Origin: Amphiscolops sp. MND2022
Lineage: Eukaryota
Reading direction: 5' to 3'
DNA length: 64,000 bases
Assembly: GCA_964187785.1 (NCBI GenBank)
Contig: OZ076409.1
Coordinates: 28,460,001 to 28,524,000, forward strand
A program made the translations under genes and the position numbers. Positions 8,945 through 60,020 of the stretch are shown piece after piece. Position 1 is the stretch's first letter. The number at the start of each line of letters is the position of its first letter. Under the pieces are notes generated by a model. That model did no database searches. It was not told the DNA's origin and worked only from the letters and a program-made list of their open reading frames with translations.

Positions 8945-10370
8945 CCGGATACCAGACAAAAGCGCCCCAGACAAAAGCGCCCCAGACAAAAGCGCCCAAA
9001 ATAGGCAGTCAAAAGAGCCCCAGTCATAAACGCCCCAATCAAAGACAACAGAGGACTTGCTGACTCTTTTCCAAAACCAGTTTCAAGTACCTCACTCCAG
9101 TTAAATAATTATAAGTATTTAATCTCAAACCCTTGTAATGATAAATTGATACCTTAATAAATTTGTATAGTTCGTTCAGAAATGCCGAAATTAGCAGTTT
9201 ATATCGTTTTCAATTGAAATTTGCAAGGTGTGAAAATGGCAAACCTGACATTATCAGTGAGGTAATCATGTCTTTGAGGCGGTGAAATCAAATCAAATAT
9301 TTGACAGACGTTTTGGACTGGGGGGCTTCTGTCTGTTCACGGTTTTGATGTTAAAGATTATTTTTTTCCTGAAAAATGAAAAATCATGGACATCCCTTCA
9401 TATCAAGTAGCAATCTATGCTTCTTTAAACACAATATGGAGGCAAAAACTGAAGAATTTTTCAAAAAATTGCTTTGTAAAATGGGCGCTTTTGACTGGGG
9501 CGCTTTCGACTGGGGCGCTTCTGTCTGTTCACGGTTTTGATGTTAAAGATTAGTTTTTTTCCTGAAAAATGAAAAATCATGGACATCCCTTCATATCAAG
9601 TAGCAATCTATGCTTCTTTAAACACAATATGGAGGCAAAAACTGAAGAATTGTTTTAAAAATTGCTTTGTAAAATGGGCGCTTTTGACTGGGGCGCTTCT
9701 GTGTGTTCACGGGTTTGATGTTAAAAATTAGTTTTTTTTCTGAAAAATGAAAAATCATGGACATCCCTTCATATCAAGTAGCAATCTATGCTTCTTTAAA
9801 CACAATATGGAGGCAAAAACTGAAGATTTTTTTAAAAAAATTGCTTTGTAAAATGGGCGCTTTTGACTGGGGCGCTTCTGTCTGTTCACGGTTTTGATGT
9901 TAAAGATTAGTTTTTTCCTGAAAAATGAAAAATCATGGACATCCCTTCATATCACGTAGCAATCTATGCTTCTTTAAACACAATATGGAGGCAAAAACTG
10001 AAGAATTTTTTAAAAAATTGCTTTGTAAAATGGGCGCTTTTGACTGGGGCGCTTCTGTCTGTTCACGGTTTTGATGTTAAAGATTAGTTTTTTCCTGAAA
10101 AATGAAAAATCATGGACATCCCTTCATATCACGTAGCAATCTATGCTTCTTTAAACACAATATGGAGGCAAAAACTGAAGAATTTTTAAAAAAATTGCTT
10201 TGTAAAATGGGCGCTTTTGACTGGGGCGCTTCTGTCTGTTCACGGTTTTGATGTTAAAGATTAGTTTTTTCCTGAAAAATGAAAAATCATGGACATCCCT
10301 TCATATCACGTAGCAATCTATGCTTCTTTAAACACAATATGGAGGCAAAAATAAAGATTTTTTTAAAAAT
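8945..10370. repeat. MITE-like element whose right end is amplified into ~6 tandem ~178-bp units (9311-10370)
   Basis: cagacaaaagcgcccc repeats at 8953-9035 are the reverse complement of ggggcgcttttgactggggcgcttctgtctg, which opens each tandem unit. Units are near-identical. Confidence 0.85.
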
Positions 10371-13355
10371 TGCACAGAGCAAGCAAGACTAATAAATTCT
10401 ATAGTTTCTTCTTTTACAAAATTCAAAAAATTGCTTACCATAAGGGAATTGATCGATGATTCTTGTAACAAGGTGAATAAAGTTATGCCAAAAGAAACGC
10501 CGCACAGCAACAAAACTAAAACGAAATTGCAGCGACCTTCGAGAACCATTTCTCCTTCTCCACAACCATACATTAAAGTTTCCCGTGAAGAGAATGTGCA
10601 GTGTGGCTATGTCAGGGAGGATTATTTTATTTAGTCATGCCAAAGCAGATAATTGCATCAACGGGATTCAAGTTTTTGTTTATCACGTTGTGGATACCAC
10701 TTTCCACTTCTAGTACAGTTTTCTTAGTTCACATCTTTTTTCCAATGCATATATCTCCGCTGAATGCATCCGATCAAATCCAGCTCTCAGTGTTACTATC
10801 TACGTTCCGTGGTACAATGACACACAAACATCTTGAACGCCTTGGCAAGATCTTGAACACTCTCTCATTTTCTGTTAGCACCAAAAGCTACATTTTCGTC
10901 TCGAGAAGTTTCAATTACATAGCATTACAAAGCTTATCAATTCAGAACGTGATACTTGTTTAGTAGCGTTTACAGCTGCCGCACGATAAATAGACACGCA
11001 TCGGATGCGGTGCAGCAAACCATTAAATCAACGTGTCAACAATTCTACAGCTGGGTTCTAGAGTCCCAAACAGAAAGCGTTGCACGCAGAGAATTGAATT
11101 ATATGTGCATCGGCACAAATTCACGGACATTTCTGTCAATTTCAATACGCATTACACGCGAAAAAAGCAGATTCCACGCTAAATATCTAACTCTTGAAAA
11201 ACACGGAATTTCGCGCACGAAAAACTAAATTTTCCCGCAATAAAGTAAAGGAACAGCAACTTTCATGAAGAATTTAAAATCGACCTTGTTGTATCATCAC
11301 GTAGCAATACATTGAAATACGAGAAGCTTCCCTAGTCGAGATTGCTTGAACTTTTTACATGCTGCATGGAAACTTGTAAGCTAATTCTTTGCAAAACATG
11401 GAAAATTCAGGGAACATGCATGATACAATTTTGTAAAACTTCCAAGCAGTTTGTAAAATGCTTAAGTCGCATCCATGCACTTTGAAAAAACTTCCAAGCA
11501 GTTTACAGGAATTTCTTTTGAAAAATAGGAAGCAAGAAAACGAAAGCTTCGATGGATGTTAAACCTGGACGACTTTACAAAACTCATTCAAACGCTTTCT
11601 GTTCATCTTGAAAGCTTGTGTATTCATCAAAAGGTCAATTTAATGTAATTTCAATCATAACAAAAAGTGACAAATAAGCACAAAAAAGATAGTTGAGAAG
11701 CCAAACCGAGTTCGTAGCCCTCAGAAGCAAAAGTTACAATTGGTTAAGTCAATTCAATCTTTTACCATGTGACATGCATTTGATGACCGAATCACAAATA
11801 CATACGTATATAAAAAAACTAGAAAGACTCTACATTGTTGACAATTATCAACTTTTAAAACTTTTTTCTAAGTATCTCCGCGTTCCACGCATCAATGTCT
11901 GGTAAAAGTATGCCTTTTAGTTGATTCTCCGGGGGAGAACTCGAAGAGCTACTAAGCTCATTTCTCATCCTATTGGATATTATATATATAGTGATTCATT
12001 ATTTGATATGTTTTGCTTTTAATATCCAATGAAATTATACTTTCAAACTTTCAAACTTTCAAAGAAGTTAGCAAAACCAAACCAGCGTCCAGTTCGCAAA
12101 CGACTGAAACAAAAGCTAGAGCTTTGGCCACGTCTGAAGCACTCCAACTACAAACATGACGAGACCAGAAAACTAACACGGTTGGAGAGGCTGAAACAAA
12201 AGCGTTTCTAAAACATTCGAAACTTTGATACACAGCGAGACAAAAAGCAAGGTTTTCAAACAATTCAAAGCATCGGTTCAGGATGGGATATCAAACTAGT
12301 CCTCGACGTTTTTGCTCATTATTACAATCAAAAGGTTGAAGAAAGGTTTCCGATAACAACAAAAACAAGGTTGAATGTTCCAAAATCTGTATGAAAAGTT
12401 CTCAGAAAGTTCTCCTGAAAACAGCTTCGACAACCCATAGAAAAACGCAAAACAATGGAAGGCATTCCCAAAAAGCTCTTGAGAAACGTCTAAAAGTGTT
12501 TCGGGAATAACGCCTAAAAGAATAACATCTAAAATTCAACGTTTTAAAATAGGGAAGCAGCATAACTGGAAGACAGAATAAGATATAACGCCTAAGATCG
12601 AAATTACCAAAATGGATTAAGATCTAATGGATTACATGTCAGGAGTCGGAAACATTCCTTTGGAGCTAGATTAAGGTCACATCGTCTTGAATGTCTTCAA
12701 CATTCTCTAATACAACCGAGTCGACAATCCCAACAAACACTAACGCGAACTATTAGCCAGATTACATCAGGGGTGTCTCTGCATCGATGGCATCGAAGCC
12801 TAATCTTGACACAACTTGATTGTTTTCTGTTTAAATATGGCCTTCGAACACATTCTTGGAAATTTTCTTTTCATTCAAAAATCTTGACCTTTGTTATTGC
12901 AGTCCTGGTAAAAAGACTTTGTGTATTTTTAGAAGTTCAGGTTTTAGATCTTAGGCGCTGGTTGAACTCCGGAAAAAAAATCTTAGGCGACGTTCTTAGT
13001 TCTTAGTTCTTAAAAAGATCTGAGTTCATTTTGGATCATGTTACACCTTTAGATCTTATCCCATGTGAGGCGTTAGATGATCTTAATCCGTCCTCCCGAG
13101 CGTAACTTACTCCAGACGTTATTCCCGCCTTACATTTCAACGTAGTTTGATTTTTTTTCTAAAATTCAAATTTTTCAAACAAAATCGATGATTTTCATCT
13201 TCTAAATGTTCAAAAAGGCGATGATTCGCATGAAGTTTGAATCGAAATGCTCACAAAAGCCTGTTATAGCACTTATTCTACTATATCAGATTTCGTTACT
13301 GGCTGAAATTTCGTGGCTGAAAAAAAATTATAGAAAAATTGAGTTTTCAACCAAT

Positions 13356-13768
13356 TGTGATGCCATGATGCATGTCCTCAAAGATTCCATAAATCTGAAA
13401 TACTCTGAACTCTTAACCAAAGTGATTAGTAAATGTAATTTAATTTGGAAGCTAATTATTCTAGAAGAAACTTCATCTAATATATCCTGTATCAAGCTTC
13501 CCCGATTCATCCTGTTGCTGTCACATTGTTAATTGATGAAACCTACCCTAGTTAATAGAATATATCTACTCGGAGAAATTGAGAATTCATCCTGACGATC
13601 GGTCTTCCCGTCAGCACTCCAAGAACTGAGATCTCAGAAATAGATTGTAATCAGACTTAGCTAACTACAAGATACAAAATAAGACGACTCTGCTGTTAAA
13701 ATCTTAGACTTCTTATGTCGATGATAAAACATCTAAAAGTAACTACCACACAACTTTTTAACAGCTCA
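13356..13768 (+). repeat. 5' LTR of element A
   Basis: TGTGATGCC...ACAGCTCA; direct repeat of 30743-31155 with about 10 substitutions counted by eye. Confidence 0.95.
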
Positions 13769-13770
13769 AT

Positions 13771-13785
13771 TGGTGCGACCAAGAA
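13771..13785 (+). promoter_or_regulatory. Primer-binding site of element A
   Basis: TGGTGCGACCAAG begins 2 nt after the LTR CA; cognate tRNA not assigned. Confidence 0.7.
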
Positions 13786-14466
13786 AATTCTTCTTTCTCT
13801 CCCATTCATTTCACACATCTACAATTGTTGTACACCTTTCCACGACTTTCTCATTCGATATCTCTTTGTTCGACACACAGTTTCTCCGCCTCTCTCTCAA
13901 TATCGCTTACCGTTACTAACTTCAACGTTGCAACCAATTTCTATTTGAAATTGATCCGTGTTGCTATGGTTCTCACTGCGTTTCTCAACGTAATTCCTGT
14001 CAGTCATATTTCTTGGTTCTGACTACGTTTCTCGCCATAATTCCTGTCAGTAAATTTTTCGTTCCAACCACCTTTGAGTGAATTCGTGTTGGCTTTCTCT
14101 CTTTCTTCCGTTCCAACCGCAGACGTGCGATACGTGTTGGCCCTTCTACAGTGCTATCCAGCGATTCCTGCTAGTAAAAATCTCTTTGGTTCGAGCCGCT
14201 CGGATCAACTTTAAAGTTGGCACACCTATATAACATCCATTTTTCATAACATCTTTATAATACTTTTCCTTCTCTCTCTTCTAATAGCACAAACAAAATA
14301 CAAAACTCTTTTAAAACTAAACTACGGATCCAAATACACAACAATTAAAAATATAACATATATATCACATATTTCTTTATATAACTTTCATTTTTTCATA
14401 CACATATATATATAACAAATTTTTATACAACCTCTTTGGCACACTCTTAATAGAACTTTATTGTAC

Positions 14467-14589
14467 ATGCCGCCTTCAATAGACACTGTAGTTACACTCA
14501 TTGTTTGCTTTTGGTTCTTTATTGCTATCGTTGCCGGTCTTGCACTTTTTCTTGAGAAATTCTTAATTTCATTTATACCAAAACTTTGA
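14467..14589 (+). CDS. 40-aa hydrophobic upstream ORF (single transmembrane helix predicted)
   Basis: MPPSIDTVVTLIVCFWFFIAIVAGLALFLEKFLISFIPKL*, translated by hand. Confidence 0.4.
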   Translation: MPPSIDTVVTLIVCFWFFIAIVAGLALFLEKFLISFIPKL

Positions 14590-14856
14590 AGTACAACCCT
14601 TCTCTTCTATTTTAACAAAGATAATACTACCTCTTTTTGGACTACTTAGTATTTACCACACTTTCTATACACTTATCCAATATATACAAAATCCATTTTT
14701 TCTTTTCATAAGTACAGTACTTACAATTTTCTTACAAGTTGTATTCATAGACCAAATTTTACCATATAATTCACAATTCAATACAAGTTATCTTCTTTTT
14801 CAATAGATATATCCTTTATGGCAATCTTATTATACTAACCAAACTTAAACCTTATA

Positions 14857-17800
14857 ATGCTTCCCACTCCATCTATATTAACCACTGAAAAAGACAAAAT
14901 CGATCTCTCATACAAGATGTAACACCTTTTCTAAATAACATTATCTTCCAGTACACAAATCCGCTACCATTTGAAACTGAACCCCATATAGTACATACTA
15001 TCCCATTAGTAAGAGAACATTGTGATTCCTATCTCTATTACATTCGATATAAAACACTTGAAATAACACCATCACAAATCCCTTTTCAAGTTATTTTTAA
15101 CCCAGTTAAAGGAATAAACTCTGGAACATTTTATAGAACCATACACCCACAAAATTTTACAAACAAAACATTTTCAATACAGTTTCTTTATCAACATTAT
15201 CCTTACGGATGATACTATACCCCAAGTAAAAATTTTTACCCAATTCTTATTAAAGTTTTTTAGATTGAATTATCAACTACTTTGGGAACAAAAAGGTCAA
15301 CAAGCTTACATTAATTTCCCTCAAATACTAACATATATAGAACTCTTACCATACATCATAAAAAATGAAAACAAACATTTACACTACAGAGATCTTACTT
15401 CATTTAATATTATACATTTTCAACAAATAAACTTAGATCACAACGTTTTACTTGAACATTCTGAAACATCAGATAACAGACCTTTTATTACATCCGACAC
15501 TTCTCACGAAATAACTCCTGCAGAACAAACTTCTAGTGTTGAACCTTCATATACAAGACAACAATCAGAACAATCAGAACAAGAATCCCCAGAACAAGAC
15601 GCCCTTGTTAATCTTTTTCAAAATCCTAATCCTTCTCAAGAACAACCACTATACCCACCACTATCACAAATCTCAGATATACAACAACCAAACCCTATAC
15701 AAAACAACTACAACTCACAACACATCAGAATTCTCTGAAGAAACAGTACAAAATACACGAAGTTTTACAATAACTGACGATTCAAATCTTATAATAATTC
15801 CTACCCACAATATCACACAAAACGAATTTACCAACCAAAACCAAGACAACACTTCAAATACAAATCCAGACAATACCTCTATTTTATCCACATCTAACAC
15901 TAATATTACACAACCTTCTCAGGCACAAATACCATCCCCTCGAAATTATAATCCACCTTCTGTTCCAACTCAATTTTCAACTCAGATAAACACCTATGAT
16001 TCTCCTCAACCAAGTTCATCAAATACACACTATATTGCACAGAACACTAATACAGTACATTTTCAAACACCAACTCCACCATTACCTTCTGAAATACAAA
16101 CTTCAACTTATACTCCAGCTCAAACTAACCCAGTACAAACTACACAACCTTCCTTAAATGTTAACACCATTTATTCCAACCCATCCACTAATTATACCAC
16201 TGCCAGACACCTTTCTCGACCTCCATTACAGCCTATATTAACTAATCCATTATCGTACAGTCTTACAAGTACTAATCCAAGTAATACACAACAACCTCAG
16301 ATAAACTACAATACACCCAATCCATTAAATACTCTTTCCTCTCAACACACATCTAATACAATCACACCTACATTACAACCTTCCCAATTTCAAATACCAC
16401 ATCCTCCTACAACAACAATTAGAACTAATCCTCACTTTCATAACACTTCTACCACTTCCTTAACTAATATTTCAAATAATTCTACTTACAATACAACACC
16501 ACCATCTACCATATCTCATAACACCATGTCACACCCAACATATATTAACTCCTCTACTTCTATATCAGAGCCCATTAAACCTTTTAATGGCCTTGATCAT
16601 AAGTATACATCTGAAGAATACTTACAACATATTGAGGCCCGTGTTACATTTTCCTTAGGTTTACAACCTACATCAGAACAGGAAAATAAATTTTGGCACG
16701 CTCGCCGCATGGCTTTCATACAATGTTCTTTAATAGGTACAGCACTCAGCTGGTACATTCGTTTAAACGACACTTATAAACATGATTGGCACGCTATTGT
16801 ACAAGCCTTCAAAAAACAATTTTCCTCACAAAAGAACGCTTACTATGCTCAAGTTGAAGCCCTTAATTTAACCAAAAAAGAGAATGAAACAGTACGTCAT
16901 TTTGCACTCAAATTTCAACAGCTGGTTGAAAAAGGCTGGTGTAATGAGAATGCATCCACTATAAACCTTAAATGTAATGAAATCTTTACAAAAGGACTTC
17001 CAAAAAATCTTAAAGACTTTGCAAATAAAAGGCAAGTAAAACACACTTCCACTGTTCTAGAACCTTCAATTCCTTTTCATACATTAGTAAAACTTGTTGA
17101 CGCTGAAGATATTGCAAACGACAAAATCAGAACACATGATCTTGCACTTGAAATTAATAATATTACAAAACAATTGAGTACTCAAACTCTTGATCACTCA
17201 TCTCAAGAACAACTTATGTATACACAACCCAAAGACCCAAACAACAAAAATAAACCTGCATATAAGAAATATTGCTAATACTGTCATAGAACAAATCACT
17301 CCATTTCTGCATGTTTCAAAAAACAACGAGATGATGAAGATAAACGAGAAGCATATGCTCGATCTAAATCTCCACAAAAATCATTTGTACAGTACTTTTC
17401 TTCTCCTTCCAATGATAGAACAAAAAACTATGATAATAGATACAGAAGTCGAAGTACTTCACGAGACAACTCTTACAACAAAAATTATCCACAAAACCGA
17501 TACCGTTCTACATCTCGAGATAGAGATAGATTTCGTTACGACAAAAGTACTACTCCTCCACACTACTCTAGATCAAGATATGATTCATACAAACGTGATT
17601 CCCGGTCTTACCGTTCTCCTTACAGATCTTCTTATAGATCCCCATATCGACAAAACTCTCGTCCTAGATACAGATCACGCTCCTATTCAATAGACAACAA
17701 ATTCACCAAATACACAAATTCATATAGACCACCTTCAAGACCAAGAGACTCTAGATTTTCTAGATCTCGCTCACACTCCAATTCCAGAAATAAAATCAAT

Positions 17801-20800
17801 ATGATACAACAACAAGACCAAACTGACCCTATAAAACTTGAAGTACACATGTACCACCCAACAGCAATGGCAAATGCTGTCACACCTACAAGTTGGTTTT
17901 ATACACTATATGTACATACACCATCAAGTATAGTACAAAGAGACAACCCATCTAGATTAGAAATTGCATTCCTCCTAGATAGCGGTGCTTCCATTTCTGT
18001 ACTCAATTACCCAACATACATAACTCTTACAAAACTCCTAGATATCAGATCAAATCACACCTCTGATGTTGGACCAACTCGAAATTTCAAAACATTAACC
18101 GTTGCAAACCAAACTGAAGTTCCTATTTTACATTATGCAAATATAATTTTGAACACCACTATTGACGAAAACTCTCGTTACTTTTCAGTACTTTTCGCAG
18201 TAGCTGATATCAAATACAACATCCTTGGCACACCATTCTTGGAAGACAATATACAAAACATAAACATACAAGACTTTACACTCGAATTTAAATACCAATC
18301 AAAAACACACCCAAATTATGCAAAGTTCACAATACTCCTATCCAAATATCATCCATACTTCTCTTACATTTATAGAATTAATTCAAAAACTCAAATACGT
18401 CCTAAACCCAAGTCTTCAAAAATTGCACACTTTCCAATAAAAAATTATCATAATCTCCAATTTACAACTACACCACAAAACCACTTCTTTCCTTCAGTAC
18501 CTCATACCTATTTCGCTACTAAATTTCGTACAAATTTCAATTTTATTGAAGTATTTACTGATGACAAACCAGATATTTGTGCAACTATTATTCAGAACAC
18601 TTCAAAACATGTTGCAACACTACCTACAGGACATATTGGATATATTGAAGTTCCAATAACTAATGAAAAACCCAAATTCTTCCAAGTTAATGACATCAAT
18701 ACCTTAATACATAACGTTACTTACACCTGCCATCCTGAAATCACTGAGCCACTTCCACAAACCAACTATATTGTACAATATGATGACCCTACGACACCTC
18801 CTCCTCAATTCTCTTTACATCAAATTTTTATGACCAACGACGACATTCCAAATCAAACTTCTCCTTTATATAATGTCCAACCTACTTCTCATACTTCAGA
18901 AAAACGCATTTTCCCTTCTCTACCATATACATCTGAAAATCTGAAATTCATTAATCAATTTAACTTCCAATTTTCTGACCTTACAGACACTGAATATATT
19001 ACTCTTTGCAGTATGTTACTCAAGTATAAAACTTGTTATGCAACTCATAAAAACGATGTTGGAAAAATTTCAACACCCTTCCGTATTCGACTTAAACCAA
19101 ATGCTCAACTTATGACACAACGTCCTTCAAAAGTCCCTATTCACTACAGAGACAAACTTAACGTACTTCTTAAAGAACTTGAAAGATATAACATTATCAA
19201 ACAAATTGGTTCCTCTCCTCAAGACAAACTCGTTTATGGTAGAACTTATTTAAATCCTCTCATTATAATCCCTAAGGGAGATACAATAAAAAGTGTATTA
19301 GACGCTCGACACATTAACTCCAATACAGAACAATCTGATGAATCTTGGCCTATTGAACCTCTTGCTCCACAACTAGCACGCGCAAATAAGAAATACAAAT
19401 CTGCTATTGACCTTATGTATGCCTATGCACATACACCTCTTGATGGAGACACTATAAAACTTACTAGTTTCTCCTCCGGAGATAAACTCTTCGCTTTCAT
19501 TCGAGGTTTTTATGGTCTCAAAGGACTCCCAAACTTCTTTACAAAACAAATGTCCACCTTCTTTAAAACTCTTATAGAACAAGGTTTTGCTCTTGTTTAC
19601 ATTGACGATATGTTACTTTTATCTGACTCTAAAGAACACATGTTCCAATTTATAGAACAACTACACATTATTAGTACAAAAAACAACCTTAAACTAGCCC
19701 CTGAAAAATCATTTTTCATGCTTCTTAAAGTCAAATTTCTTGGACATGAAATTGGTTACAATACAATTAAACCAATCCATTCGAAAATTGCAGCTATCCA
19801 TAAAATCCCTTCTCCAACTGGCAAAGTTGCCCTAATGAGTTTCATTGGCGCACTCAATTTCTACACCAAATTTATTGAAAAACTACATATTAACCTCAAA
19901 CCATTTTACAATCTTTTACATGAAAACACTCCTTGGAAATGGACAGATGAACACGAAAGTCTTTTCCAGAAACTTAAAATGTCTCTCACTTCTGAAACAG
20001 AACTTACAATACCAAATACAAAACATCCATATTTCATTACAGTTGACGCTTCCCTTATCGGATTAGGCGCTGTCTTATTCCAATTAAATGAACAAAACAA
20101 AATGAAAGTTATATCATACAACTCTCGTATACTTAATCCACAAAAACAAAAACTCTCCACACTTGATAGAGAACTTCTTGGTATAGTACACGCACTTCAA
20201 ATCTATGAATTTCTTATCATTGGTTCTCCTCATCCAATACACATTTTCACTGATCACAAACCTTTATTACATTGTTTTACAAAAAAAGGTAATCTTAGTC
20301 CTCGTTTTTATAGAGCTCAAATGCAGTTAACAAAATTTTCTAAACTCAAAATAATTCACACTCCTGGAAAAAATCTCTCTGTTGCTGATATGTTAAGTCG
20401 CTCTTTTACAAAAGCTGAATTACAACTCAACCAATTAAAACATAAACAACTTCCACCACAAATTGATTTTGCACTTCTACAAAATAACACTCTTAAACCT
20501 GTACATTATTTAATTAAACACGAAGAAATTTTACCCCATCAAAAACATGACTCTCACCCAATCCTCGCTGATTATGGTACAGATCAATTCTCTAATCGTA
20601 TCAATGACAAAGGAAATGACATTGTTGTCAAACCGTTACAATCTTTCTCATTCAAATCTATAACTCCTTTTCAAACCAAGTTCAAGACACCTATAAAAAA
20701 GAACAGTAAAAACTCTTCATCAACAATCTCTCTTATTTAACGATACTGACGTTACAAGCGATGACGAAGATCATATATATACTAGAATTCCAAAATCTGA

Positions 20801-22859
20801 CTCTTCCTTCCTTCAAGACACTACATTACAAACAGAAAACTATTCTACTCCTAAACAATTAACTCCAAATACTACAAAAAAATTTGTTTCTACAATAAAT
20901 GTACAACCAAATTTACCATCTCTCACACACTGTCAACAAATTATACCTTTCTATGATACATCATTTTTCAAGTACAAAAACTATTTTCAAGGTTTCTTCC
21001 TCCCAGATGATTACTCGTTAGACATAAAAACTCTTCAACAACAACAAGCCCAAGATCTGGTTCTTAGAACTGTTTATTCTTGGTTATTAAACAATGAAAA
21101 ACCCGAATTTGTAACACCTATTATCACTGGTACTCCATTTTAACATGTATATTACAAAAGATTTTCACAACTTTTCATTGACGAGTCCACAAACCTTATT
21201 AGTCTATATATTACAAACCCTAATGTTATAAACCAATACTCTACTCCAAGTTTTGTACAAGACACTATTCGTATATGTCTTCCTTTTCGAATGTTCAAAA
21301 CTGTTTTTAACAAACTCCATGAACACTCTCACACTGATATGAAAATTACATACAATACATTCAAACAATATTACTACATTCCATTCCATGAAAAATGGCT
21401 TTCCATTTTCATACATGACTGTATTGAATGTCAACGTAACAAACACTTCAATATGAAAATTCAAACTGCTCCTACACAATCATTTTCAGAACATGCTCCA
21501 TCTTTCAACTATCGAATTTCAATGGACACTAAAGGACCTATTAATCCTCCTTCTCACAACAAATCCTATATACATGTAATAATTGACGCTTTTAGTCACT
21601 TTGTTGTTACAGTACCCATCAAATCAAATAACGCAAAGACTGCTATCAAAACTCTCCTACACCATTGGATTATTAAATTTGGACCACCTATATATCTTGT
21701 CACTGATCGTGGATCAGAATATGTTAATAAAGAAATGGCACACCTTTGTACACTTATGGGAATTCGTCATTCTCCTAGAACAGCTCATTCTCCTTGGACA
21801 AATGGCCTTGTCGAAGTACAAAACAGAAATCTTGGTACCCACCTACGAATGTTCTTGCATGACACACCTAAAGCATGGGCATTCCAAGTCCATATGTACG
21901 CTCATGCACATAATTCACAACCACTTTCAGAACTCTATATTTCACTTCACGAACTTGTTTTCCACACCCGACCCAGAATACCTCTTACATTTGATTTAAA
22001 CTTTAACTGAGAAACTTCTAAAACATGTATTTCACGCTATTGCTCTCAACTTCCAGAACACTCCCATTATGACAAATCGAATTTAAACCGATTTTTCTAT
22101 AAAACACTTTCAAAACCCATCCCTCATTGGTTTCTCGCCGTAGAAACTGCTATGTTACAAATTTATTCTACAGTATACGAAAACACTCTACGAAAAATCA
22201 ATTCACACGCATACATTACAAAATTTTACCACGAAGGTAAACCCCTTCCTATTGGTACCTTTGTTTTAAAACGCAATTTTACACACGTTCATTTTTCTGA
22301 CAAACTAAAACCCCTTCGAATTGGACCATACAAAATTCTTGATAGATTATCAGATGTTACATATGAACTACTTGCACAAGATGGCTCTACAGTACTCGTC
22401 CATAGAAATCATTTAATTCCATATTATCCAAAAGAACCACTCTTATATCCACATCTACGTAGTTTTATGCGCTTTTCAGACACAACTCAATTCCAAATTC
22501 CACAACCTACCAAATACGCAAACAGTGATTCTTCCCCTTTTAACTCAGACGAATCTTTGTCAGAAGAAGATTCTCAAACATTTGTGACGCCACCATCCTT
22601 TACTACGTCCAATCAAAATACACCATCTATAACATCCAATGACAAGTCTTTCACTCCCTCAACCAATGACAACTCCTTATATAGACATATAATTAATACC
22701 CCTCACACTAATGTCTCTAGTGACAGATCAAGACACTCATCTAATAACCAAACAACTTCACTTCCTCCTCTAATTGACAGAACCACAAAAACTACTTATA
22801 AACTACGACAACAAGCCAAATTAGATTATAGACTTTTTATTACACCCTCAAAACTGTAA
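14857..22859 (+). pseudogene. gag-pol of element A, disrupted (start approximate)
   Basis: Capsid-like region (IKPFNG...ALSWY); CX2CX4HX4C knuckle broken by TAA at 17276; RS-rich tract; protease FLLDSGAS; RT YIDD; RNase H TVDAS...TDHKPL; integrase HHCC, SMDTKG/TDRGSEY/GLVE and GPY. ORFs 15536 and 17801 share a frame; frameshift near 20710; stops near 21142 and 22008. Confidence 0.93.
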
Positions 22860-22945
22860 TCCCATCATTCTATCCGTTGGCTCACTCAAAACTAGTCACT
22901 CCAGTTAAATGAAATATAACCAATAACAAGTTATCGCAAAGATAA

Positions 22946-24205
22946 CCTGTTGAAAACACTTCAACAATCCTGGATCCTCCCTCTGATATATCTCCATCAG
23001 CTCCAAGTATTCCTTCCACACCTGAATCTTCAGTATCAAGCACTACAAACTCTAGTAATGTAACTCCTACTACTCCTTATAAAAGACCAAGATCACACAT
23101 TTCTGAAACCACCTCTTCTTCACTTCTTCATAGACCACCTATAACTGAAATCCCTATAAACACTCGTACTCAACAAACTCCTATTAACACTCCTATTATA
23201 CACATACCAAACCCTGAAAGTGTTGAACAATACGTAACCTACAAACATCCTACAGCTATCAAAACTGTTAGACTACAACCTCAACTTAATCTTGTACAAA
23301 TCCCTGATACGGAATATACAAAGTTACCTTCACTGAAATTACCATCAGAACTTAGCACTACTTCTTCAAAACTTTATCCACCATTAAAACCTCTTCGAAA
23401 ACCTTCTACATCACTCTCAAATCTCTTAGACAATACTTCAGACTACGCTCCATCACAAGACACAAGCTCACTTTTAGTACCTAAACATAGATATAATCTC
23501 CGTGACCTCCCTTCACGTAGACTTAGTACAGACACTTCAACACTCAATTTTTCCACTCTTTCTAGCAATTCTGCACTACGACTTATACGACAACACGCTC
23601 AACCATTGTCCTCTGACACACCTTCTTCAGAACTTTTCCAATCTCCTTATTTTACTTCTGGCTTTGAAACTGCTTCATTACTCTCATCTAACCCTCAGAC
23701 TGCATTTTTATCGGGAGACCTTTTTTCACAAGTAGTCTTCCCTACTCCTGTTCCTGCACATATTAGACTACCCGAATACTATACTGCAGAACACTCTAGA
23801 CCCCCAACTCCAAATTTTGCTGACTATCCACTTAGAGTCGATGGTATAACCATCTACGACCCACAAAACGACCCCCGATTTCCAATTCTTGCAGAACGTT
23901 TCATTAACAACAACGACCTCTTATCTCACAAACGCAAAGAAACAGAACTGAAACGCCTTCAGACACCAAATCTAGAACTTAAATTTGAAGTCAAAGTCAA
24001 ATTTCAAGGATTAAATCCACACCCAATATTTCACGTTTCTACAATAGAACATAAAACCTCTCCTGCTCCTTTTGAAGTAATACATATTGAATTTGAACGC
24101 GATCTTAATATACCCACTATCACGTATGGCAACATTGTCTTCTGTAACCCATATTCCGGTCTTAAATATACAACATCTTTTCAAACCCTACACAACCTTT
24201 TATAA
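22946..24205 (+). CDS. Accessory ORF between pol and env (~420 open codons, S/T/P-rich N-terminal half, PSAP and LYPPL motifs); start unresolved
   Basis: The frame of ORF 23606-24205 stays open back to 22946 (hand-translated). Confidence 0.6.
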   Translation, partial: PVENTSTILDPPSDISPSAPSIPSTPESSVSSTTNSSNVTPTTPYKRPRSHISETTSSSLLHRPPITEIPINTRTQQTPINTPIIHIPNPESVEQYVTYKHPTAIKTVRLQPQLNLVQIPDTEYTKLPSLKLPSELSTTSSKLYPPLKPLRKPSTSLSNLLDNTSDYAPSQDTSSLLVPKHRYNLRDLPSRRLSTDTSTLNFSTLSSNSALRLIRQHAQPLSSDTPSSELFQSPYFTSGFETASLLSSNPQTAFLSGDLFSQVVFPTPVPAHIRLPEYYTAEHSRPPTPNFADYPLRVDGITIYDPQNDPRFPILAERFINNNDLLSHKRKETELKRLQTPNLELKFEVKVKFQGLNPHPIFHVSTIEHKTSPAPFEVIHIEFERDLNIPTITYGNIVFCNPYSGLKYTTSFQTLHNLL

Positions 24206-26833
24206 AACAAATTTAATACTTTATTTACACTTATTTAACTCCACCTTTTCCATACTCATAACACCCTCTGACACAGAAAACTATCTTCCATCGGATTACC
24301 CAAATATTACAAATCTCATGGTTTCTCATTATGACTGTGCAAAACAACACAATTTGAGACAATTTAACTTACTTAATGTAAAATAATGCACTGAAGCTCC
24401 TTCTGACATTAAACACGCAAGTGTTAAAGCCCGTGTATATGTCCGAGCAAAAGCTAAACGCATCAAAGCTTTTAAATGTGTTGCTTATGCAAAGAAAGAA
24501 AGAAAAAACTTGCTTTCAAGGTTCCGTAAAATACCGTCGTGTTGATAGAACGGTATGGAACCATAATACAATACCGCTCCCTGTTACTCTTGATCCTTTA
24601 GAATGTAAAAACATTATAAGACATTTAAATGGTACAAATGATAAAATATTGAACAACTTTCAATACAACAAAACTTTTACACTCTTAGAACATCATTATT
24701 TTCAAGAACGTTAAGAACAATATCAAACTCCTTTCACTGTATATCAATTGAACAAAATGTATACAGGTACATTTACATTTATGCCTGCTGATAAAAACTG
24801 GATATATGACCCTACTCAAAACCCTTATCATAACTGTCCTGCCCATCACCAATTCGAAGTCAACCTGGTTAGTTAGCGATTAGAAATTTCCGAAGTAGAA
24901 CTTACATATGATGACACATCTAATGACATGATAATCGATGGACATACATTACCCTGCTATTTTGCAGATGGTTTTTGAAAACCCACATCAAAAACTCCTT
25001 TTACTTTTGTTTGGTTCAATGATGATTATTGCTTAATTTTTACATTACAAGATTTCATTGGCCGTATGACTAAAATTGAAGATAGATATTAGATTGGAAC
25101 AGACTCTTTTGTACATTCTCCACACCCAATAAAATCTAAAACAGCTTCTGGTATCAAAGGTACAGAATACTCCTATGTTTATGCTCCTCATACACAACAT
25201 CCAAATAACCCAAGTCTTTCAAGATTTGAAGTTTTTCCTACAGCACAAACCTTTTGTGGTAAACCAGACCCTCTCTATTCTACACAATATTCAGACCTTT
25301 TTGTTACATACACTGATGGTTTCAATATGCATACAGGACAACCCAATCCTTATTCCATGATTGATGAATATATTTCCGGTAAATTAGTATTAGACACTGC
25401 AAATAACAAATTTGTATTCCCTGCATTAAATGTCTCAAACAATTTTGCTACTATTGACTATGACGCCCATATAAACACCAAAATAGACTACACTATCAAC
25501 CATGTTTTTAGATCAATGACAGTACAAGAACTAAATACTCTTCATACAATATGTGAACTAGAACGCAATCAACTCCTTACAATACTCGCAATGTCAGAAC
25601 AAAACCCTCAACTTGCTGGTTTCCTTTTAACCGGTAATAGAAGTAATTTCTTATACGTTGAAGGCTCAACCGCCTGGCTTTACGACTGTCCTCATTTTTT
25701 ATCTCCTTTATACAAAGCAGATAGATGCTTTGACCGAATACCCATACATTTTAAAGATACCTTAATGTACGTTGATCCTATTACAAGACAAACTTATGAT
25801 TATGCTACACCAATTACATGTGATAATAATCCACGTAACTTATTGAACTAGATCCTGATTCAGACGACCAAGACTTTTACATTCTTGGACCTGAACCTAT
25901 TAAACGCAAACCTCCACTAATGTTTACACCTTCACAAATCAAAACTACACTACGCCCTAATACCTTTACAGCCCAAGATGCTGGTATATATTCAAATGCA
26001 GAACTTGATCAATTTTGGAACCGTATTTTATTTCTAAACATTCTGATTCTACACTCCAATTACTAGGCAAAGCTCTTAGTTATTCCTTCATTTCATCTAA
26101 TGCTCCAAATTACGATGCAGATTCCCCTCAAGATTCTGGTAATCCTTATAATACATTACGTATAGGACTCCACGATAAACTCTTGAATTTAACTCCTTTT
26201 TTTACACCTACATGGTTTTCAGATGCTTTTATTGCACTTTTTGGATACCCTTGTTACATTCTCACACAATGTGGTATATACTTTTCTACATTTCTTTTCG
26301 TACAAGCTACTCTTACACTCATTGTCAAACTTAACAAAACAATATCCATTAAATATAATCTCAAAAATAATATTACCTTATTTAGTTCTATAGCACATGG
26401 TTTTTTTAATGTCCTTACAGCACGAATGGTCAGTGACCTCCATGAGACTCAAAACAAAAAACCCAAAAGTACACTTTTAAAATCCAAATCCTTAGATAAT
26501 TTTATTGACACTTCTCCAAATTTAATTAATCATTCTACAGATGTTACTTCCCCTCCACCTTTCTATACTAAACGTCCTAACAAAATTCAATTTCCTAAAT
26601 TTAACTTGTTTCCGAAACGACACCACAGTTCCCACCAAAAAACAGCTCCGTTTCCTTTCACTCCTGTTCAACATCCTCCACTTCCTAATTATACTCATAA
26701 AAACTTTCACTCGAAGGACAATCTCACTACTCAACATGACACTTTAATTAACAATTCTGAAACCTCCAATACGGATACACCAATTAAAATATATTCACGG
26801 ATAAACTATCCTTTTCCTCCTCCATCTTCTTGA
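24200..26833 (+). pseudogene. env: env: class III (chuvirus G / herpesvirus gB-like) fusion glycoprotein, disrupted
   Basis: Signal-like KTNLILYLHLFNSTFS; motifs SHYDC, LDPLEC, ICELERNQLLTILAM..NPQLAG and CFDRIPI..YVDPITR..PITC; TM segment near 26230-26330; Pro-rich tail; several stops and frameshifts. Confidence 0.8.
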
Positions 26834-27104
26834 ACACTCTCTCACTTTTCTGTAAACTTTCTTCCAGCACACTTGCCTACTATCTCTTCACAATTGCTAC
26901 TCCTCCACCGCACGAAACTCTTGCAGAAGTTCATCTTCCTCAGCCCAAAAATACATCTCTAATAATAACCGTCTTCAAAAACTCTTCAACTAAAGTTGAT
27001 AAATCCACTCGTTAGTGTATTTTTTAGTACCTTCACTTCAAAGTGATAAGGCCTCTTGGAATAGATAACACTGTGATTGTTGATGTTTTTCTTTTAAAAA
27101 TACA

Positions 27105-28418
27105 ATGACACAAGCACAAATTGATCTACAAACCCAGCTTGAACAAGCAACCCCAACAGATCTTATAACTAGACCTCTTTCAAATGATTCTCCTGTTCTC
27201 TATATTGAGACTTCTGAACAAACACCTCCAACTTTTCTTGAACAAATGGAATATACAAAAGTTGAACACGAAAATTCAAAACCTACTCCTCCACAAGATG
27301 ATACTGATCATACACAACCAACACCACCTCCTTCAAAAAAACGATATGAGATTATGAAAGATCCAATCTTTCTTTCGTCACCGATATATCCTCCTTCAAT
27401 ACCTTCAAAAATTTCACTTTGCACGAATCGCGATGACCATTTGATCCCACTTCTTTCTACTGACGATTTCGCCTTTAAAGCACAACTAACTTCACTATAT
27501 ATGCATCCTACCGATTATTCATTTCGACTATATGACAAAAATCAAGACTTCTTCACGTCCATTGCCTCCAAAATAATGGGTCCATACCAATATTGGCTCG
27601 ATAATGGAGTTAAAATTTTCTCTCTAAAATTTAATTTTCTTCGACCGTCTATCTACGATCTCAAAACAGATGAATCTGATCCATCTTTTCTCTCTATAGC
27701 ACAAAAAGCTACTCATCATCAAACGTATACTAAATTTCTACAATACACGAAACCACAAAATCACATTTTTGTCAATTACAAATATACATCACCGTTCACA
27801 ATGACAAATATGTACACTCTGGACCACTCTTGTATAACAGGCTACCTTCGAAATTATGACCCTATAAAACAATACTTCTGTTTGCTTCCATATAACAATA
27901 CTTCACGCCCACTTATTGTACCTCAAGAATATCTCATACATTACGACGATTTTCTGTTGCCTTGCAACATTCCTACTCAAATTGCCAAACCTCTCACTGT
28001 TATTAAACACCTAGTATCTTCTCCACTTGACGATAATGATAGAACGTACTATACAGCACTCTATAAGCAAACGTATTCCTACAATGAACTTCTCTTTATA
28101 TCTGCCAAAACTATCTCTTTCATGGTACAAGCTGAACAAAAAACTGAACATAAATCACACGCTTCACCTATAAAAAACGCTCCTGACAAGCTTTCCTCTG
28201 TACTGAATAATCGAACACTTCGCGACATGACAAATTTACTTGAACCCTATAAACGAAACTCTTCTGACACACCTATCACAACACTCACACATATACTACA
28301 CTGCTACGACAGAACACACAAACTCCTTCAGACACTCGATTTAGACTCTCAACGCATCACTCAATCATCCCAAGCAATTCAATCTGCTTTGGAAACTATA
28401 ACTACTCTTTTTAACTAA
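27105..28418 (+). CDS. Accessory ORF of element A, 437 aa, unknown function
   Basis: Intact ATG ORF between env and the 3' LTR, with the same composition bias as gag-pol. Confidence 0.75.
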   Translation: MTQAQIDLQTQLEQATPTDLITRPLSNDSPVLYIETSEQTPPTFLEQMEYTKVEHENSKPTPPQDDTDHTQPTPPPSKKRYEIMKDPIFLSSPIYPPSIPSKISLCTNRDDHLIPLLSTDDFAFKAQLTSLYMHPTDYSFRLYDKNQDFFTSIASKIMGPYQYWLDNGVKIFSLKFNFLRPSIYDLKTDESDPSFLSIAQKATHHQTYTKFLQYTKPQNHIFVNYKYTSPFTMTNMYTLDHSCITGYLRNYDPIKQYFCLLPYNNTSRPLIVPQEYLIHYDDFLLPCNIPTQIAKPLTVIKHLVSSPLDDNDRTYYTALYKQTYSYNELLFISAKTISFMVQAEQKTEHKSHASPIKNAPDKLSSVLNNRTLRDMTNLLEPYKRNSSDTPITTLTHILHCYDRTHKLLQTLDLDSQRITQSSQAIQSALETITTLFN

Positions 28419-28852
28419 ACTAATCTTCATTAAACTCTTCTACAGGTAATACAAATTTCTTAATTTTTCTTCTCTGGTACATTCTATGATACATCTGTGG
28501 CACATTATAAAAGGTATTTTAATTTTTACCTACTTATTTAAAGTAAAATCTTGCTTTTGAATGAAATCTTAGGACTATTTTTCAAGTACAACAATCTTTC
28601 CTACAGTACATGTCAAAAAGCTAAATACTTCTATCAAAAAAACCTCCAATACAAGACATACAAAAACATATAGCACAACACTACATATGATACATTCTAG
28701 CACCCAATTTTGTTGTACATCCTTGACTTGATATTGTCAGTCTTCTTACACTTCCTTTGTTTTAGAAACATCCATTCTTCTTCCTCCTCCTTCCATACTC
28801 TTTCAGAACATCTCCACTTCTCCTCTTTCGTCTTCTACAGGATTCTCTCGCC

Positions 28853-29305
28853 ATGGCCCCCAACGCTGAAGTAGAAGATATAAGAACTATGACTTCAGGT
28901 CACTCAAAAGTTCATAGCCTCAAAGCAGCTATTTTTCACACAATGGCTCACAAACTTTCACTGGAAATCAACAACAATAAAATAACGCCAAAATCTCTTA
29001 TAGCCTTTCTGAAAATCTTATATAATGTCGCCCAAATCAAAAAGAAACGCATCACATTTGAACAATATTCAAGGATTCATGTTGCCGGACCAAAAATTGC
29101 CATTTGTGAAACGGCTTCTAATGTCGTTTTTGTGTTAAACTCGGCATTCACTTCCAAAGACCAGTATTTTCAAGCTGCCCTACAAGAAGCCACAAACGCA
29201 TTCAATGAAATGCTCCACAGTTTTGCGTATACACAGAAATTAGAACACTATGACCCTCATCAACATCAGGCCCATCCACCTCAACAACATCCTCTATACA
29301 ACTAA
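28853..29305 (+). CDS. Accessory ORF of element A, 150 aa, unknown function
   Basis: Strong Kozak context GCCATGG, 12 nt downstream of a pyrimidine-tract/CAG acceptor-like site ending at 28840. Confidence 0.6.
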   Translation: MAPNAEVEDIRTMTSGHSKVHSLKAAIFHTMAHKLSLEINNNKITPKSLIAFLKILYNVAQIKKKRITFEQYSRIHVAGPKIAICETASNVVFVLNSAFTSKDQYFQAALQEATNAFNEMLHSFAYTQKLEHYDPHQHQAHPPQQHPLYN

Positions 29306-29514
29306 AAGAATATTCTACTTACTTTTATCACTCTTCAACTCCATCTCTTCTTGAATCCATCATTCTTCCTCAATGATGTTTGAGATGTAGCTGTCGATCA
29401 CTCCTCTAAAGAACTTCTCCTACACATGCTGACATCCTTCACTCCACCCACACATGATGGTCAACAACATCCATCCACACTTTGGGTTCATCGACGTTGC
29501 CAACCTTTGTCCTC

Positions 29515-29632
29515 GTCACTGGTCTTCTCAACCTGCTTCTTCACTGGTCTTCACACTTCAACGTTCATCGACTTCTTGACTGGTCTTCACACTTCTATGT
29601 CCGCTGACTTCTTGACTGGTCTTCACACTCCA
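29515..29632. repeat. 3-4 copies of a ~36-bp repeat (core actggtcttcacact) in the 3' region of A
   Basis: Direct observation. Confidence 0.8.
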
Positions 29633-30742
29633 ATGGACTATACTCCAAATTTCAAACATTGTAATCCAAACTTGAGTCACTTTTCAAACTGAACTATACA
29701 CTCAATTTTAACAAATATAACTTGAAACTTTTTGTAACCTATTTTAATCAAATTATAACTTTAATACAGTATAGTGCTATGTACTCTTATCTAATCTTTA
29801 GTGCTCTATACTCTTATCAAATCTTAATCTTCTATAATCGTATTATAATTACCCCTCTGTTGCAAAATCCCTCCAAAATTCTACCGATAATTATCTTTGA
29901 AACCACAATATTATCTGCTTCCATTGTCTTGTGTATAGTACATTGACATAATCTTATCTAATTATTTTGTTACATCTATAATACACTTCAAAAATATATC
30001 TCTAATACCCATCTTTTACAGAACACCAGTCATACCTACAGCACACGAAATTTTCTAAGATTTTTGGACCAAAATTTTCTTTTACAAAACATGTTCTACA
30101 CCTTTGTTTTAATCCCCAAAATCATTCCCAAAAATTTTCACAATTTTCTTTTTGAACTCTTCAAAAATGTAACTTCTCGTTTTCTAATGTTTGAAACTTG
30201 AAATTGCCAAAGTTTTTTTTCAACTGTTGCTTCTGCTCCACTCTTCACTTTCGTTGAAAATGAACTCTCACTCGAACCTTGACTTTTCGAAACTTCTTCA
30301 CTTTTGGTTCACATACCCGCCATTGTTGATTCACAACTCATTGACAACTTCACGCTTTAATTCTTCAACTTGAAAAGTTTTCAATGCTGACTAACTCATG
30401 TTGATGAAAAAATTTTTTCAAACAAGCCGATGGCCGATACGAAGAGAAACATGAAACAATAAATAGTTGTCAACAATAACTTCATAAAAAACTGTCAGTC
30501 AAAGAAACTGAAAGAACTTGAACCTTGCTTGAACCTTTTTGCACCAATTGAATCGTCTATGACGTAAGAAGTCAAATCGTCTTAGGTTGTTCTCACTCCT
30601 TAGGTATAGTACTCTACAAAACGAAACTCATGCAATTCCAGTACAACACATATGAAACAAACCCATGCATATAACAAAAACTTTAGAACTCCTCAAACCC
30701 AAAGTGCATATATGTAATTTTAATTTTAAATTCCCGGTTGAT

Positions 30743-31155
30743 TGTGATGCCATGATGCATGTCCTCAAAGATTCCATATATCTGAAATACTCTGAACTTT
30801 TAACCAAAGTAATTAGTAAATGTAATTTAATTTGGAAGCTAATTATTCTAGAAGAAACTTCATCTAATATATCCTGTATCAAGCTTTCCCGATTCATCCT
30901 GTTGCTGTCACATTGTTAATTGATGAAACCTACCCTAGTTAATAGAATATATCTACTCGGAGAAATTGAGAATTCATCCTGACGATCGGTCTTTCCGTTA
31001 GTACTCCAAGAACTGAGATCTCAGAAATATATTGTAATCAGACTTAGCTAGCTACAAGATACAAAATAAGACGACTCTGCTGTTAAAATCTTAGACTTCT
31101 TATGTCGATGATAAAACATCTAAAAGAAACTACCACACAACTTTTTAACAGCTCA
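30743..31155 (+). repeat. 3' LTR of element A
   Basis: Matches the 5' LTR; followed by TSD CAAT. Confidence 0.95.
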
Positions 31156-31898
31156 CAATCAAAACCGCTGATTATAAATTTCTGTTCTCAAAGTATTTCC
31201 CTGGAAAACCTTATAAGGTTTCAAAATGAAAATGTTTTCATTTTTCCAAACCCGAAATGTGATAGATACTTTCCAACAAGCTGCAAGCAAAAACCAAAAT
31301 TCCAGTTGTACGAGATTGTTTGCCACACTGGCTTTCGTTGAATATTTGTATATGTCATATTTTAGCGCCTGTGCTTACAGAATTGGAGGTTTTGCCCGTG
31401 AAAATCTGCAAAATTTTGTTTTTGTTTAATGGTTTTTTTGTTTAATTTCCTTGATTTTGCTTTGAAAACCCGCCAAGTTGTAGAGAATCTCGATAAAAAC
31501 CTGAAAAATTAGTGACGCAGCATGAAAATATTTAGCACGAAAATTTCCCTAAGCAGCTCCCAAAAACCTAATGAATTTGTCGTGCAGCCTATAAAAACAT
31601 GCGAAGTTTCGAGCACTTTTAACTAGGGTTCGTTCAACAGAGGAGTGATGAAGGGGTTACAAATTCGGCATTTAAGTCTGGTTAGACTGAACCCTTATAA
31701 TTTCTTCTTGAGCTGTCTCATTGATCACGCCTCACCATTCATTGCACTTTCAAAAATACGCGATTTTTTCCCGGAAAAGTTGTAACTCAGTGGCTGGAAT
31801 TTCTCTGTTCTCAAAATGGAAAACTGCTGTGATACGTTGAAAGCTAAAGTTTTCTTCGGATGGAGAAACACGATTTCTTGAAATAGTTTCTGAGAGCC

Positions 31899-40019: not shown

Positions 40020-40242
40020 GCCGACAATTCTGAAAGAGCGTAGGTCGATTGTAGCACACTTGATAGTAGGGCAACACCATAGGTCATTTTAAGGGTAATA
40101 CCAGGGAAAGTAATAGAATGTCACGCATTAACATTAAAGAAAAAGGTAATGTAATAGTCTCAAATAAACTCCGTGTCGACTCACTAAACTTAATCGAGCG
40201 GATAAAAAACAAAAAACAAAAAAAAGCGGAAAAACGAGAGCT

Positions 40243-59821: not shown

Positions 59822-60020
59822 ATGTACATAATGTACATTTGCCATACTAGTCTTTCGATTTGTAAATTTCAGTTGGTTTTCGTTTTCTTTGTTTTACATG
59901 TCTTCTGTTTGTATATTTATATAGTTAGTCTTGTCAGTAACATAAAGTCAGAGTGGTCCCAGTAAAAAACATGCCTTCTTAGGCAGTAAAATAAATAGGG
60001 ACATAATTTAACATTTCTGA

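Follow-up and report, generated by a model that had tools for sequence, protein, structure and literature searches.

The 64-kb window considered here, the whole stretch of DNA that we analysed (contig OZ076409.1 of Amphiscolops sp. MND2022, positions 28,460,001-28,524,000 of the forward strand; position 1 is its first letter), contains between positions 13356 and 31155 a defective copy of a Ty3/gypsy-type retrotransposon with long terminal repeats (LTRs). The family of this element combines LTR-type integration and a class III env gene with at least five accessory genes that are under selection. The two LTRs of 413 bp align without gaps, differ at 10 sites and have TG...CA ends, and both flanks of the element show the 4-bp target site duplication (TSD) CAAT. 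The primer-binding site (PBS) TGGTGCGACCA pairs over 11 nt with the 3' end of a tRNA-Met that is encoded in the host genome, CCA included. One variant of the host tRNA-Val fits as well: five tRNA-Val genes are clustered elsewhere in the host genome (stretch L068:37-2096), and the 3' end of one of them fits the PBS, too. An earlier inspection of the DNA letters alone (the sequence-only reading) had proposed the layout LTR-PBS-uORF-gag/pol-ORF2-env-ORF4-ORF5-LTR with a TSD (ORF, open reading frame; uORF, upstream ORF). The order, the LTRs, the PBS and the TSD are real, but the frames at 14889-15735 belong to the disrupted 5' region of gag-pol and do not form a uORF; a small upstream ORF does exist, with 40 codons at 14467-14589. 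The element and its immediate flanks are organized as follows:

13352-13355, no strand: TSD CAAT, 5' copy; TSDs of 4 bp are also present in 8 of 8 sister copies.
13356-13768, plus strand: 5' LTR, 413 bp, TG...CA.
13771-13781, plus strand: PBS, 11 nt complementary to the 3' end of host tRNA-Met(CAT); identical 11-mer in three subfamilies.
13956-14230, plus strand: conserved non-coding leader block with repeats of about 47 nt, a candidate packaging or structural RNA signal.
14467-14589, plus strand: uORF-A, a single-transmembrane microprotein of 40 amino acids (aa) with a weak start context.
14609-14848, plus strand: uORF-B, a hydrophobic protein of 77-79 aa; the copy in the window has lost its start codon and contains one stop.
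14857-22859, plus strand: gag-pol, a single frame in the family, disrupted in this copy.
22970-24205, plus strand: ORF2, a Met-free protein of about 410 aa with a proposed CUG start, overlapping the start of env.
24126-26833, plus strand: env, a class III (Monjiviricetes, gB-type) glycoprotein of about 910 aa in the family, disrupted in this copy.
27105-28418, plus strand: ORF4, a 437-aa protein without family match and with a long C-terminal helix, open in this copy.
28443-28452, plus strand: donor-like motif CAG/GTAAT just 3' of ORF4; an acceptor-like CAG/G lies 12 nt ahead of the ORF5 ATG.
28853-29305, plus strand: ORF5, a 150-aa protein, open in this copy.
30257-30614, plus strand: non-coding block conserved at 68% between subfamily 1 and subfamily 2, without a common ORF.
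30726-30742, plus strand: conserved non-purine motif AAAxx CCCGGT[C/T]G at the expected site of the polypurine tract (PPT).
30743-31155, plus strand: 3' LTR, 413 bp.
31156-31159, no strand: TSD CAAT, 3' copy, matching the 5' copy.

The copy in the window is damaged: gag-pol has a deletion of about 190 bp, three frameshifts and at least four stops, and env has three frameshifts and five stops; the ORF2 frame is open from 22946 to 24202. From about 10 differences in 413 LTR sites, a fairly recent insertion had been deduced. The count is correct, but it exceeds those of all eight sister copies, which were drawn from the 40 best LTR matches and whose LTR pairs differ at 3-7 of 413 sites, so this copy is among the older insertions. 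Five of the eight sisters have a length of 17.9-18.0 kb, the other three are longer due to internal duplications or insertions. In the host genome (1.07 Gb), a 12-mer across the PBS of subfamily 1 occurs 1,019 times as compared to 62 times for the reversed control, and the family has roughly 1,000 5' ends there. We propose that the family has recently been amplified in this genome.

Three subfamilies of 17.8-18.9 kb share one gene order: small uORFs, gag-pol, ORF2, env, ORF4 and a last ORF. Subfamily 2 (about 17.8 kb, an estimate obtained by joining halves of different copies) is 92% identical to subfamily 1 in the reverse transcriptase (RT) and 70-76% in ORF4. For subfamily 3, of which all four copies measure 18.8-18.9 kb and have LTR pairs that are 99.4-100% identical, the identities are 75-77% for RT, about 63% for Env and about 35% for ORF2 and ORF4; one of its copies sits within a ~215-bp tandem array (stretches L055:1-1762 and L059:648-2963). 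Moreover, the protein P0459 is a full-length homologue of ORF4 with 37-42% identity to every subfamily. Since no relatives of P0459 with more than 50% identity were found in this genome, the lineage probably also includes members in another host or in an unsampled family. The listed homologues of ORF2, ORF4 and ORF5 from the main protein search are all of one source type and all unnamed, no relatives were found in viral or JGI contigs, and the 18S gene of the host is highly divergent and possibly acoel-like; the host is probably an acoel.

Judged by its RT, the element appears to be Ty3/gypsy (Metaviridae-like) and not a member of the Retroviridae. Among RTs of solved structure, that of Ty3 comes closest (E 1.6e-36, as compared to 3.6e-19 for foamy virus). 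Pfam matches to Retrotrans_gag, RT, RNase H and integrase occur in Ty3/gypsy order, the match for the protease is weak (E 0.03), and the features of the Metaviridae are present: LTR ends TG...CA, a TSD within 4-6 bp, a tRNA PBS, and gag followed by protease, RT, RNase H and integrase. An RT of the retroviral clade and a class I Env, which characterize the Retroviridae, were not found, and the likeness to complex retroviruses is one of gene layout only. Of the previously suggested invertebrate retrovirus lineage, this layout remains, but the affiliation appears to be with Ty3/gypsy. In the family, gag-pol starts at 14857 as a single frame of some 2,700 codons that encodes an N-terminal domain of about 280 aa, a low-complexity linker, the capsid, a CCHC knuckle, an RS-rich region, protease, RT, RNase H, integrase and a tail with the sequence YxLR, which ends Pol in all three subfamilies. 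From the ATG to the end of the 5' stretch, the frame is open in 2 of 6 subfamily-2 and 3 of 4 subfamily-3 copies. An extra stretch of about 300 aa between protease and RT (around 18300-18700) may be a dUTPase-like insert; it gave no Pfam match at E 10 in a sister frame. A +1 frame that overlaps the RS-rich region of gag (17178-17690; 202-239 codons, all subfamilies) was rejected as a gene: its ratio of nonsynonymous to synonymous substitutions (dN/dS) is 1.24, and such a frame is expected in 83% of synonymous recodings.

The accessory genes are almost certainly real, and where at least three had been predicted, at least five can be counted: ORF2, ORF4, ORF5 and the leader ORFs under selection. 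First, the extra ORFs are collinear in sister copies and in two diverged subfamilies. Second, pairwise Nei-Gojobori comparisons of six subfamily-1 copies per gene with one subfamily-2 frame, from which codons below 30% local identity had been dropped, gave dN/dS values of 0.08-0.17 for integrase, 0.08-0.09 for env, 0.13-0.16 for ORF2 and 0.08-0.11 for ORF4, which are rough because dS is near saturation and the alignments were filtered by local identity. Within ORF2, the ratio is 0.19-0.23 in the N-terminal part and 0.03-0.07, where defined, in the C-terminal part. For ORF5, the synonymous sites are saturated in this comparison (proportions of synonymous and nonsynonymous differences, pS 0.83-0.89 vs. 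pN 0.23-0.25). Third, between two lineages of subfamily 3 dN/dS is 0.09 for ORF2, 0.06 for ORF4, 0.07 for env and 0.24 for the last ORF. RT in frame gave 0.03. Controls gave about 1 or higher: an out-of-frame RT stretch 1.6-2.2 and the gag +1 frame the 1.24 mentioned above. As judged from their codons, ORF2, ORF4, ORF5 and two or three hydrophobic leader ORFs are thus under purifying selection (dN/dS mostly 0.06-0.3).

Among the leader ORFs, a frame homologous to uORF-A begins with ATG in all 21 leaders from the three subfamilies (39-48 aa in 19 of them), and its dN/dS is 0.07 within subfamily 3. uORF-B has its own ATG in 9 of 11 subfamily-1 and 6 of 6 subfamily-2 leaders, with a dN/dS of 0.23-0.31 for these two subfamilies (Fisher p 2e-5 to 2e-4). 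Subfamily 3 carries hydrophobic leader ORFs of 37 and 78 aa, both of which are constrained; within this subfamily, the leader uORFs have dN/dS values of 0.07-0.16. The start contexts of the leader uORFs are weak, which would fit leaky scanning to gag. If sORF2/FAST-like proteins are defined by an N-myristoylation motif, a transmembrane helix, a polybasic tail and a length of 63-107 aa, the leader ORFs have the hydrophobic helix but neither the MGxxxS/T myristoylation motif nor the polybasic tail.

ORF2 very probably initiates at a CUG codon (22970). Met is absent from the frame in 9 of 9, 10 of 11 and 12 of 12 copies of three sets, and at its 5' end all 32 copies read CTG GAT, with an A at position -3. 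The motif is also present in 29 of 29 further subfamily-1 loci, which were picked by similarity to a motif-bearing query and two of which repeat earlier copies. CTG makes up 0-6.5% of the Leu codons, and in one subfamily-3 ORF2 it is the sole CTG among 58. The protein similarity starts at this codon, and between it and env there are 0-3 ATGs. The best non-AUG start has been predicted to be (C/A)(A/G)(C/A)(A/C/G)CUGGAU (PMC9082881); the ORF2 copies agree with this context at -4, -3 and +1 to +6 and more poorly at -2 and -1. Since the frame offset is variable and there are stops in between, neither read-through nor frameshifting out of pol was accepted as the route to ORF2. In the disordered N-terminal part of the protein, LYPxL and YNLR are aligned in three subfamilies (chance per shuffled sequence 0.01-0.02 and 0.001-0.002, respectively), and PSAP is present in two. 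LYPxL is the ALIX and PSAP the TSG101 motif among late domains. The C-terminal domain of about 130 aa is predicted to be an alpha/beta fold of two helices and a five-strand sheet (pLDDT 68), and the Atlas matches for ORF2 are all under 0.9. Foamy virus Gag binds nucleosomes via Y537 and R540 (PMC6042332), and the YxLR at the end of Pol resembles this motif.

The env product is a class III fusogen of the gB type rather than of the insect F-type: it matches PF24664 (Monjiviricetes class III fusion glycoprotein) with E values of 7.6e-14, 8.8e-23 and 5.4e-27. Its cysteine pattern is kept across the family, and the cytoplasmic tail contains PPxY, a late motif that recruits NEDD4, in 4 of 4 frames. 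A sequence search of Env against the PDB gave no significant match.

ORF4 has no match in Pfam, the PDB (profile search) or Atlas, and its predicted model (pLDDT 39) is unusable; ORF5 has no match in Pfam or the PDB profile search, and in subfamily 3 it is replaced by an unrelated ORF of 305-313 aa at the same position. The donor-like motif after ORF4 is present in 19 of 28 subfamily-1 and 6 of 6 subfamily-2 copies; ahead of ORF5, a strict acceptor pattern is present in 2 of 28 copies and a looser YAG in nearly all, and we infer that cis-splicing may occur between ORF4 and ORF5. None of the small ATG frames of the env-ORF4, ORF4-ORF5 and ORF5-LTR spacers is common to the subfamilies. Ahead of ORF4, at 27000-27040, there is a box of about 25 nt that both subfamily 1 and subfamily 2 carry (10 loci fit the strict pattern), a possible internal promoter or splice signal. 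Ahead of the 3' LTR no PPT was found; in all three subfamilies its site is occupied by CCCGGT[C/T]G. This motif is partly complementary to the PBS core, over 5 bp only, and plus-strand priming may be unusual.

Our preferred interpretation, which is probable, is that the element in the window is a damaged member of a Ty3/gypsy lineage that has an envelope and a gene set like that of complex retroviruses. The genomic RNA would be translated by leaky scanning past the weak-context uORFs to gag-pol, and the leader uORFs would encode small membrane proteins whose layout resembles that of viroporins or Vpu. A subgenomic RNA beginning just after pol would yield ORF2 from the CUG, and ribosomes scanning onward would reach the env AUG, thus coupling the output of ORF2 and Env. 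ORF2 would be a matrix-like or p12-like adaptor that carries late motifs recruiting ESCRT (endosomal sorting complex required for transport) for budding and a YxLR chromatin tether; judged from its motifs, such a budding or tether role can be put forward tentatively. In foamy viruses, accessory genes lie downstream of env. ORF4 and ORF5, at the same side of env, could serve in regulation or counteract the defence of the host and be expressed from additional spliced RNAs, although the probability of these roles is low. Packaging of the element in enveloped particles is somewhat probable. The most far-reaching version is rather unlikely to hold in full: a Metaviridae lineage, probably of acoel worms, would have independently reached the complex-retrovirus design and still be transmitted as an enveloped virus, with viroporin-like leaders, a CUG-initiated ORF2 that serves budding or chromatin tethering and is coupled in translation to a class III env, swappable post-env regulators and PPT-free plus-strand priming.

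Several observations weigh against this interpretation. Env lacks a furin-type site (R-x-K/R-R), and its C-terminal transmembrane peak exceeds the threshold of 1.5 in subfamily 2 only. No spliced genomic copies were found among 58 loci. Between the CTG and env, the depletion of ATGs is weak if the protein sequence is kept fixed (P 0.05, 0.11, 0.01 and 0.32), and 2-3 out-of-frame ATGs remain in subfamilies 1 and 2. Subfamily 3 lacks PSAP, no similarity was found between ORF2 and the N-terminal domain of Gag, and fold searches with the model of the ORF2 C-terminal domain gave generic beta matches (best Z 4.1, nothing above E 0.03), none of them a matrix protein. Finally, the dN/dS of uORF-A between subfamilies is 0.42-0.60 and not significant (p 0.05-0.25).

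An alternative that we consider unlikely is spread mainly inside cells or by cell contact, with accessory proteins that chiefly antagonize silencing or immunity and an ORF2 without a budding role. A copy number as high as this one is a usual outcome of intracellular transposition, the subfamilies differ by a swap of the last ORF, as expected of arms-race genes, and the small leader membrane ORFs of MDG1 elements serve cell-to-cell transfer (PMC11952523). However, env is as constrained as pol and has kept its cysteine pattern and PPxY tail, the leader uORFs lack the MGxxxS/T motif that defines sORF2, and selection on ORF2 and ORF4 is strongly purifying rather than diversifying.

It is improbable that ORF2 is instead the second exon of a spliced nuclear regulator similar to Rev, Tat or CERV, with its AUG in the leader and CTGGAT as an RNA signal rather than a start. 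Such an exon could begin at the acceptor-like YAG/TCAC that subfamilies 1 and 2 have about 37 nt past the stop of pol, but stops separate this site from the ORF2 frame and the similarity starts at the CTG, where no AG is conserved and where the motif fits the optimal non-AUG context. The YNLR motif and basic stretches of ORF2 are in line with a regulator of this kind, and Cer1 expresses CERV via a spliced mRNA (PMC10309623). Distinctly improbable, too, is an operon-like mode in which trans-splicing of a spliced leader, in place of cis-splicing or leaky scanning, frees the downstream ORFs of a single long transcript. Pyrimidine-rich spacers with acceptor-like AGs precede ORF2 and ORF5, and 30% of the genes are reported to be trans-spliced in an acoel genome (PMC9911081), which bears on the element only if its host is an acoel; yet the donor-like motif after ORF4 suggests cis-splicing, and trans-splicing would be compatible with the CUG start without replacing it. 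An origin of the extra ORFs as nested insertions, as fragments captured from the host or as chance frames in C-rich, G-poor sequence can be dismissed: stop-poor chance frames do occur, as the 202-208-codon gag +1 frame illustrates, but collinearity across subfamilies, low dN/dS, the lack of internal boundaries or of internal terminal repeats hinting at a nested insertion, and the uniform C-rich, G-poor strand composition across 14-30 kb already refute such an origin for ORF2, ORF4, ORF5 and uORF-B, with uORF-A backed mainly by subfamily 3.

The preferred reading, an enveloped Ty3/gypsy lineage with many accessory genes, can be compared to several known systems. The element had been described as about twice the size of an errantivirus; its 17.8 kb are confirmed, but the fair comparison is not only with insect errantiviruses of 7-9 kb but with the Gypsy elements with gB-type env that are widespread across metazoans, the 'ancient errantiviruses' of Chary and Hayashi (PMC13524379). 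With these it shares a Ty3/gypsy pol, the gag-pol-env order, a class III env, a tRNA PBS and the multicopy state, and the PF24664-type env downstream of a Ty3/gypsy pol would place it with the 'ancient' gB-type elements, for which an RNase H plus 'mini' domain in the bridge region is a further mark; an insect errantivirus it is not, as its Env is not of the baculovirus F-type and has no furin site. The elements of that study measure 7.4-12.6 kb from LTR to LTR among the listed rows, as compared to 17.8-18.9 kb here, and accessory ORFs were not found in the passages covered. Its prefilter set upper limits of 1,000 nt for the pol-env interval and of 10,000 nt overall, the first of which is exceeded by the ORF2 gap of 1.27-1.7 kb, and no acoel entries were found in seven of its supplements. 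The Drosophila MDG1 group (412, mdg1) also has two small ORFs before gag in a Gypsy element, one of them for a membrane protein (PMC11952523), but these elements lack env and their sORF2 is myristoylated and FAST-like, whereas the element described here has env and uORFs without the motif. Cer1 of Caenorhabditis elegans is a Gypsy element with an accessory regulatory protein, CERV (PMC10309623); compared by description, it has one spliced accessory gene as opposed to at least five. Large size, env and accessory ORFs are shared with the planarian Burro and with foamy-like fish endogenous retroviruses of up to 17 kb (PMC6431247); however, Burro exceeds 30 kb and has env in frame inside one polyprotein, and the foamy-like elements are Retroviridae, in contrast to the Ty3-like RT found here. 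Anakin, a BEL/Pao element with a chuvirus glycoprotein, is another case of an LTR element that captured a class III glycoprotein from a negative-strand virus (PMC7642597, PMC12440569). It belongs to a different superfamily. We know of no comparable accessory set in Anakin. Single accessory genes are known from MDG1, Cer1 and rotifer elements, and in the literature searched, which covered few subscription journals and no Repbase, no description of env together with this many accessory genes in one Gypsy family was found.

The window contains two further Gypsy elements. One, at 35655-50121 on the minus strand, has an open gag-pol of 3,292 codons followed by an open ORF of 1,478 codons without Pfam match, a candidate giant accessory gene. 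The other, at 53756-63998, has pol at 60024-63998 on the minus strand, ORFs of 622 and 402 codons on the plus and one of 298 codons on the minus strand, none of these three with a Pfam match. In addition, there is a tandem array of about 178 bp (six copies) at 9309-10415, and repeats of 33-39 bp are located at 411-1252.

With about 1,000 copies in one subfamily, the family makes up a sizeable share of the host genome. It supplies several protein families without match in the libraries searched, a strongly conserved putative CUG start and a possible departure from PPT priming. The size and gap filters of the largest survey exclude such elements, which is a blind spot. Complex genomes with several accessory genes are commonly considered typical of the retroviruses of vertebrates; a Gypsy lineage with env and at least five such genes under selection would show that this feature had a separate origin in the Metaviridae of invertebrates.

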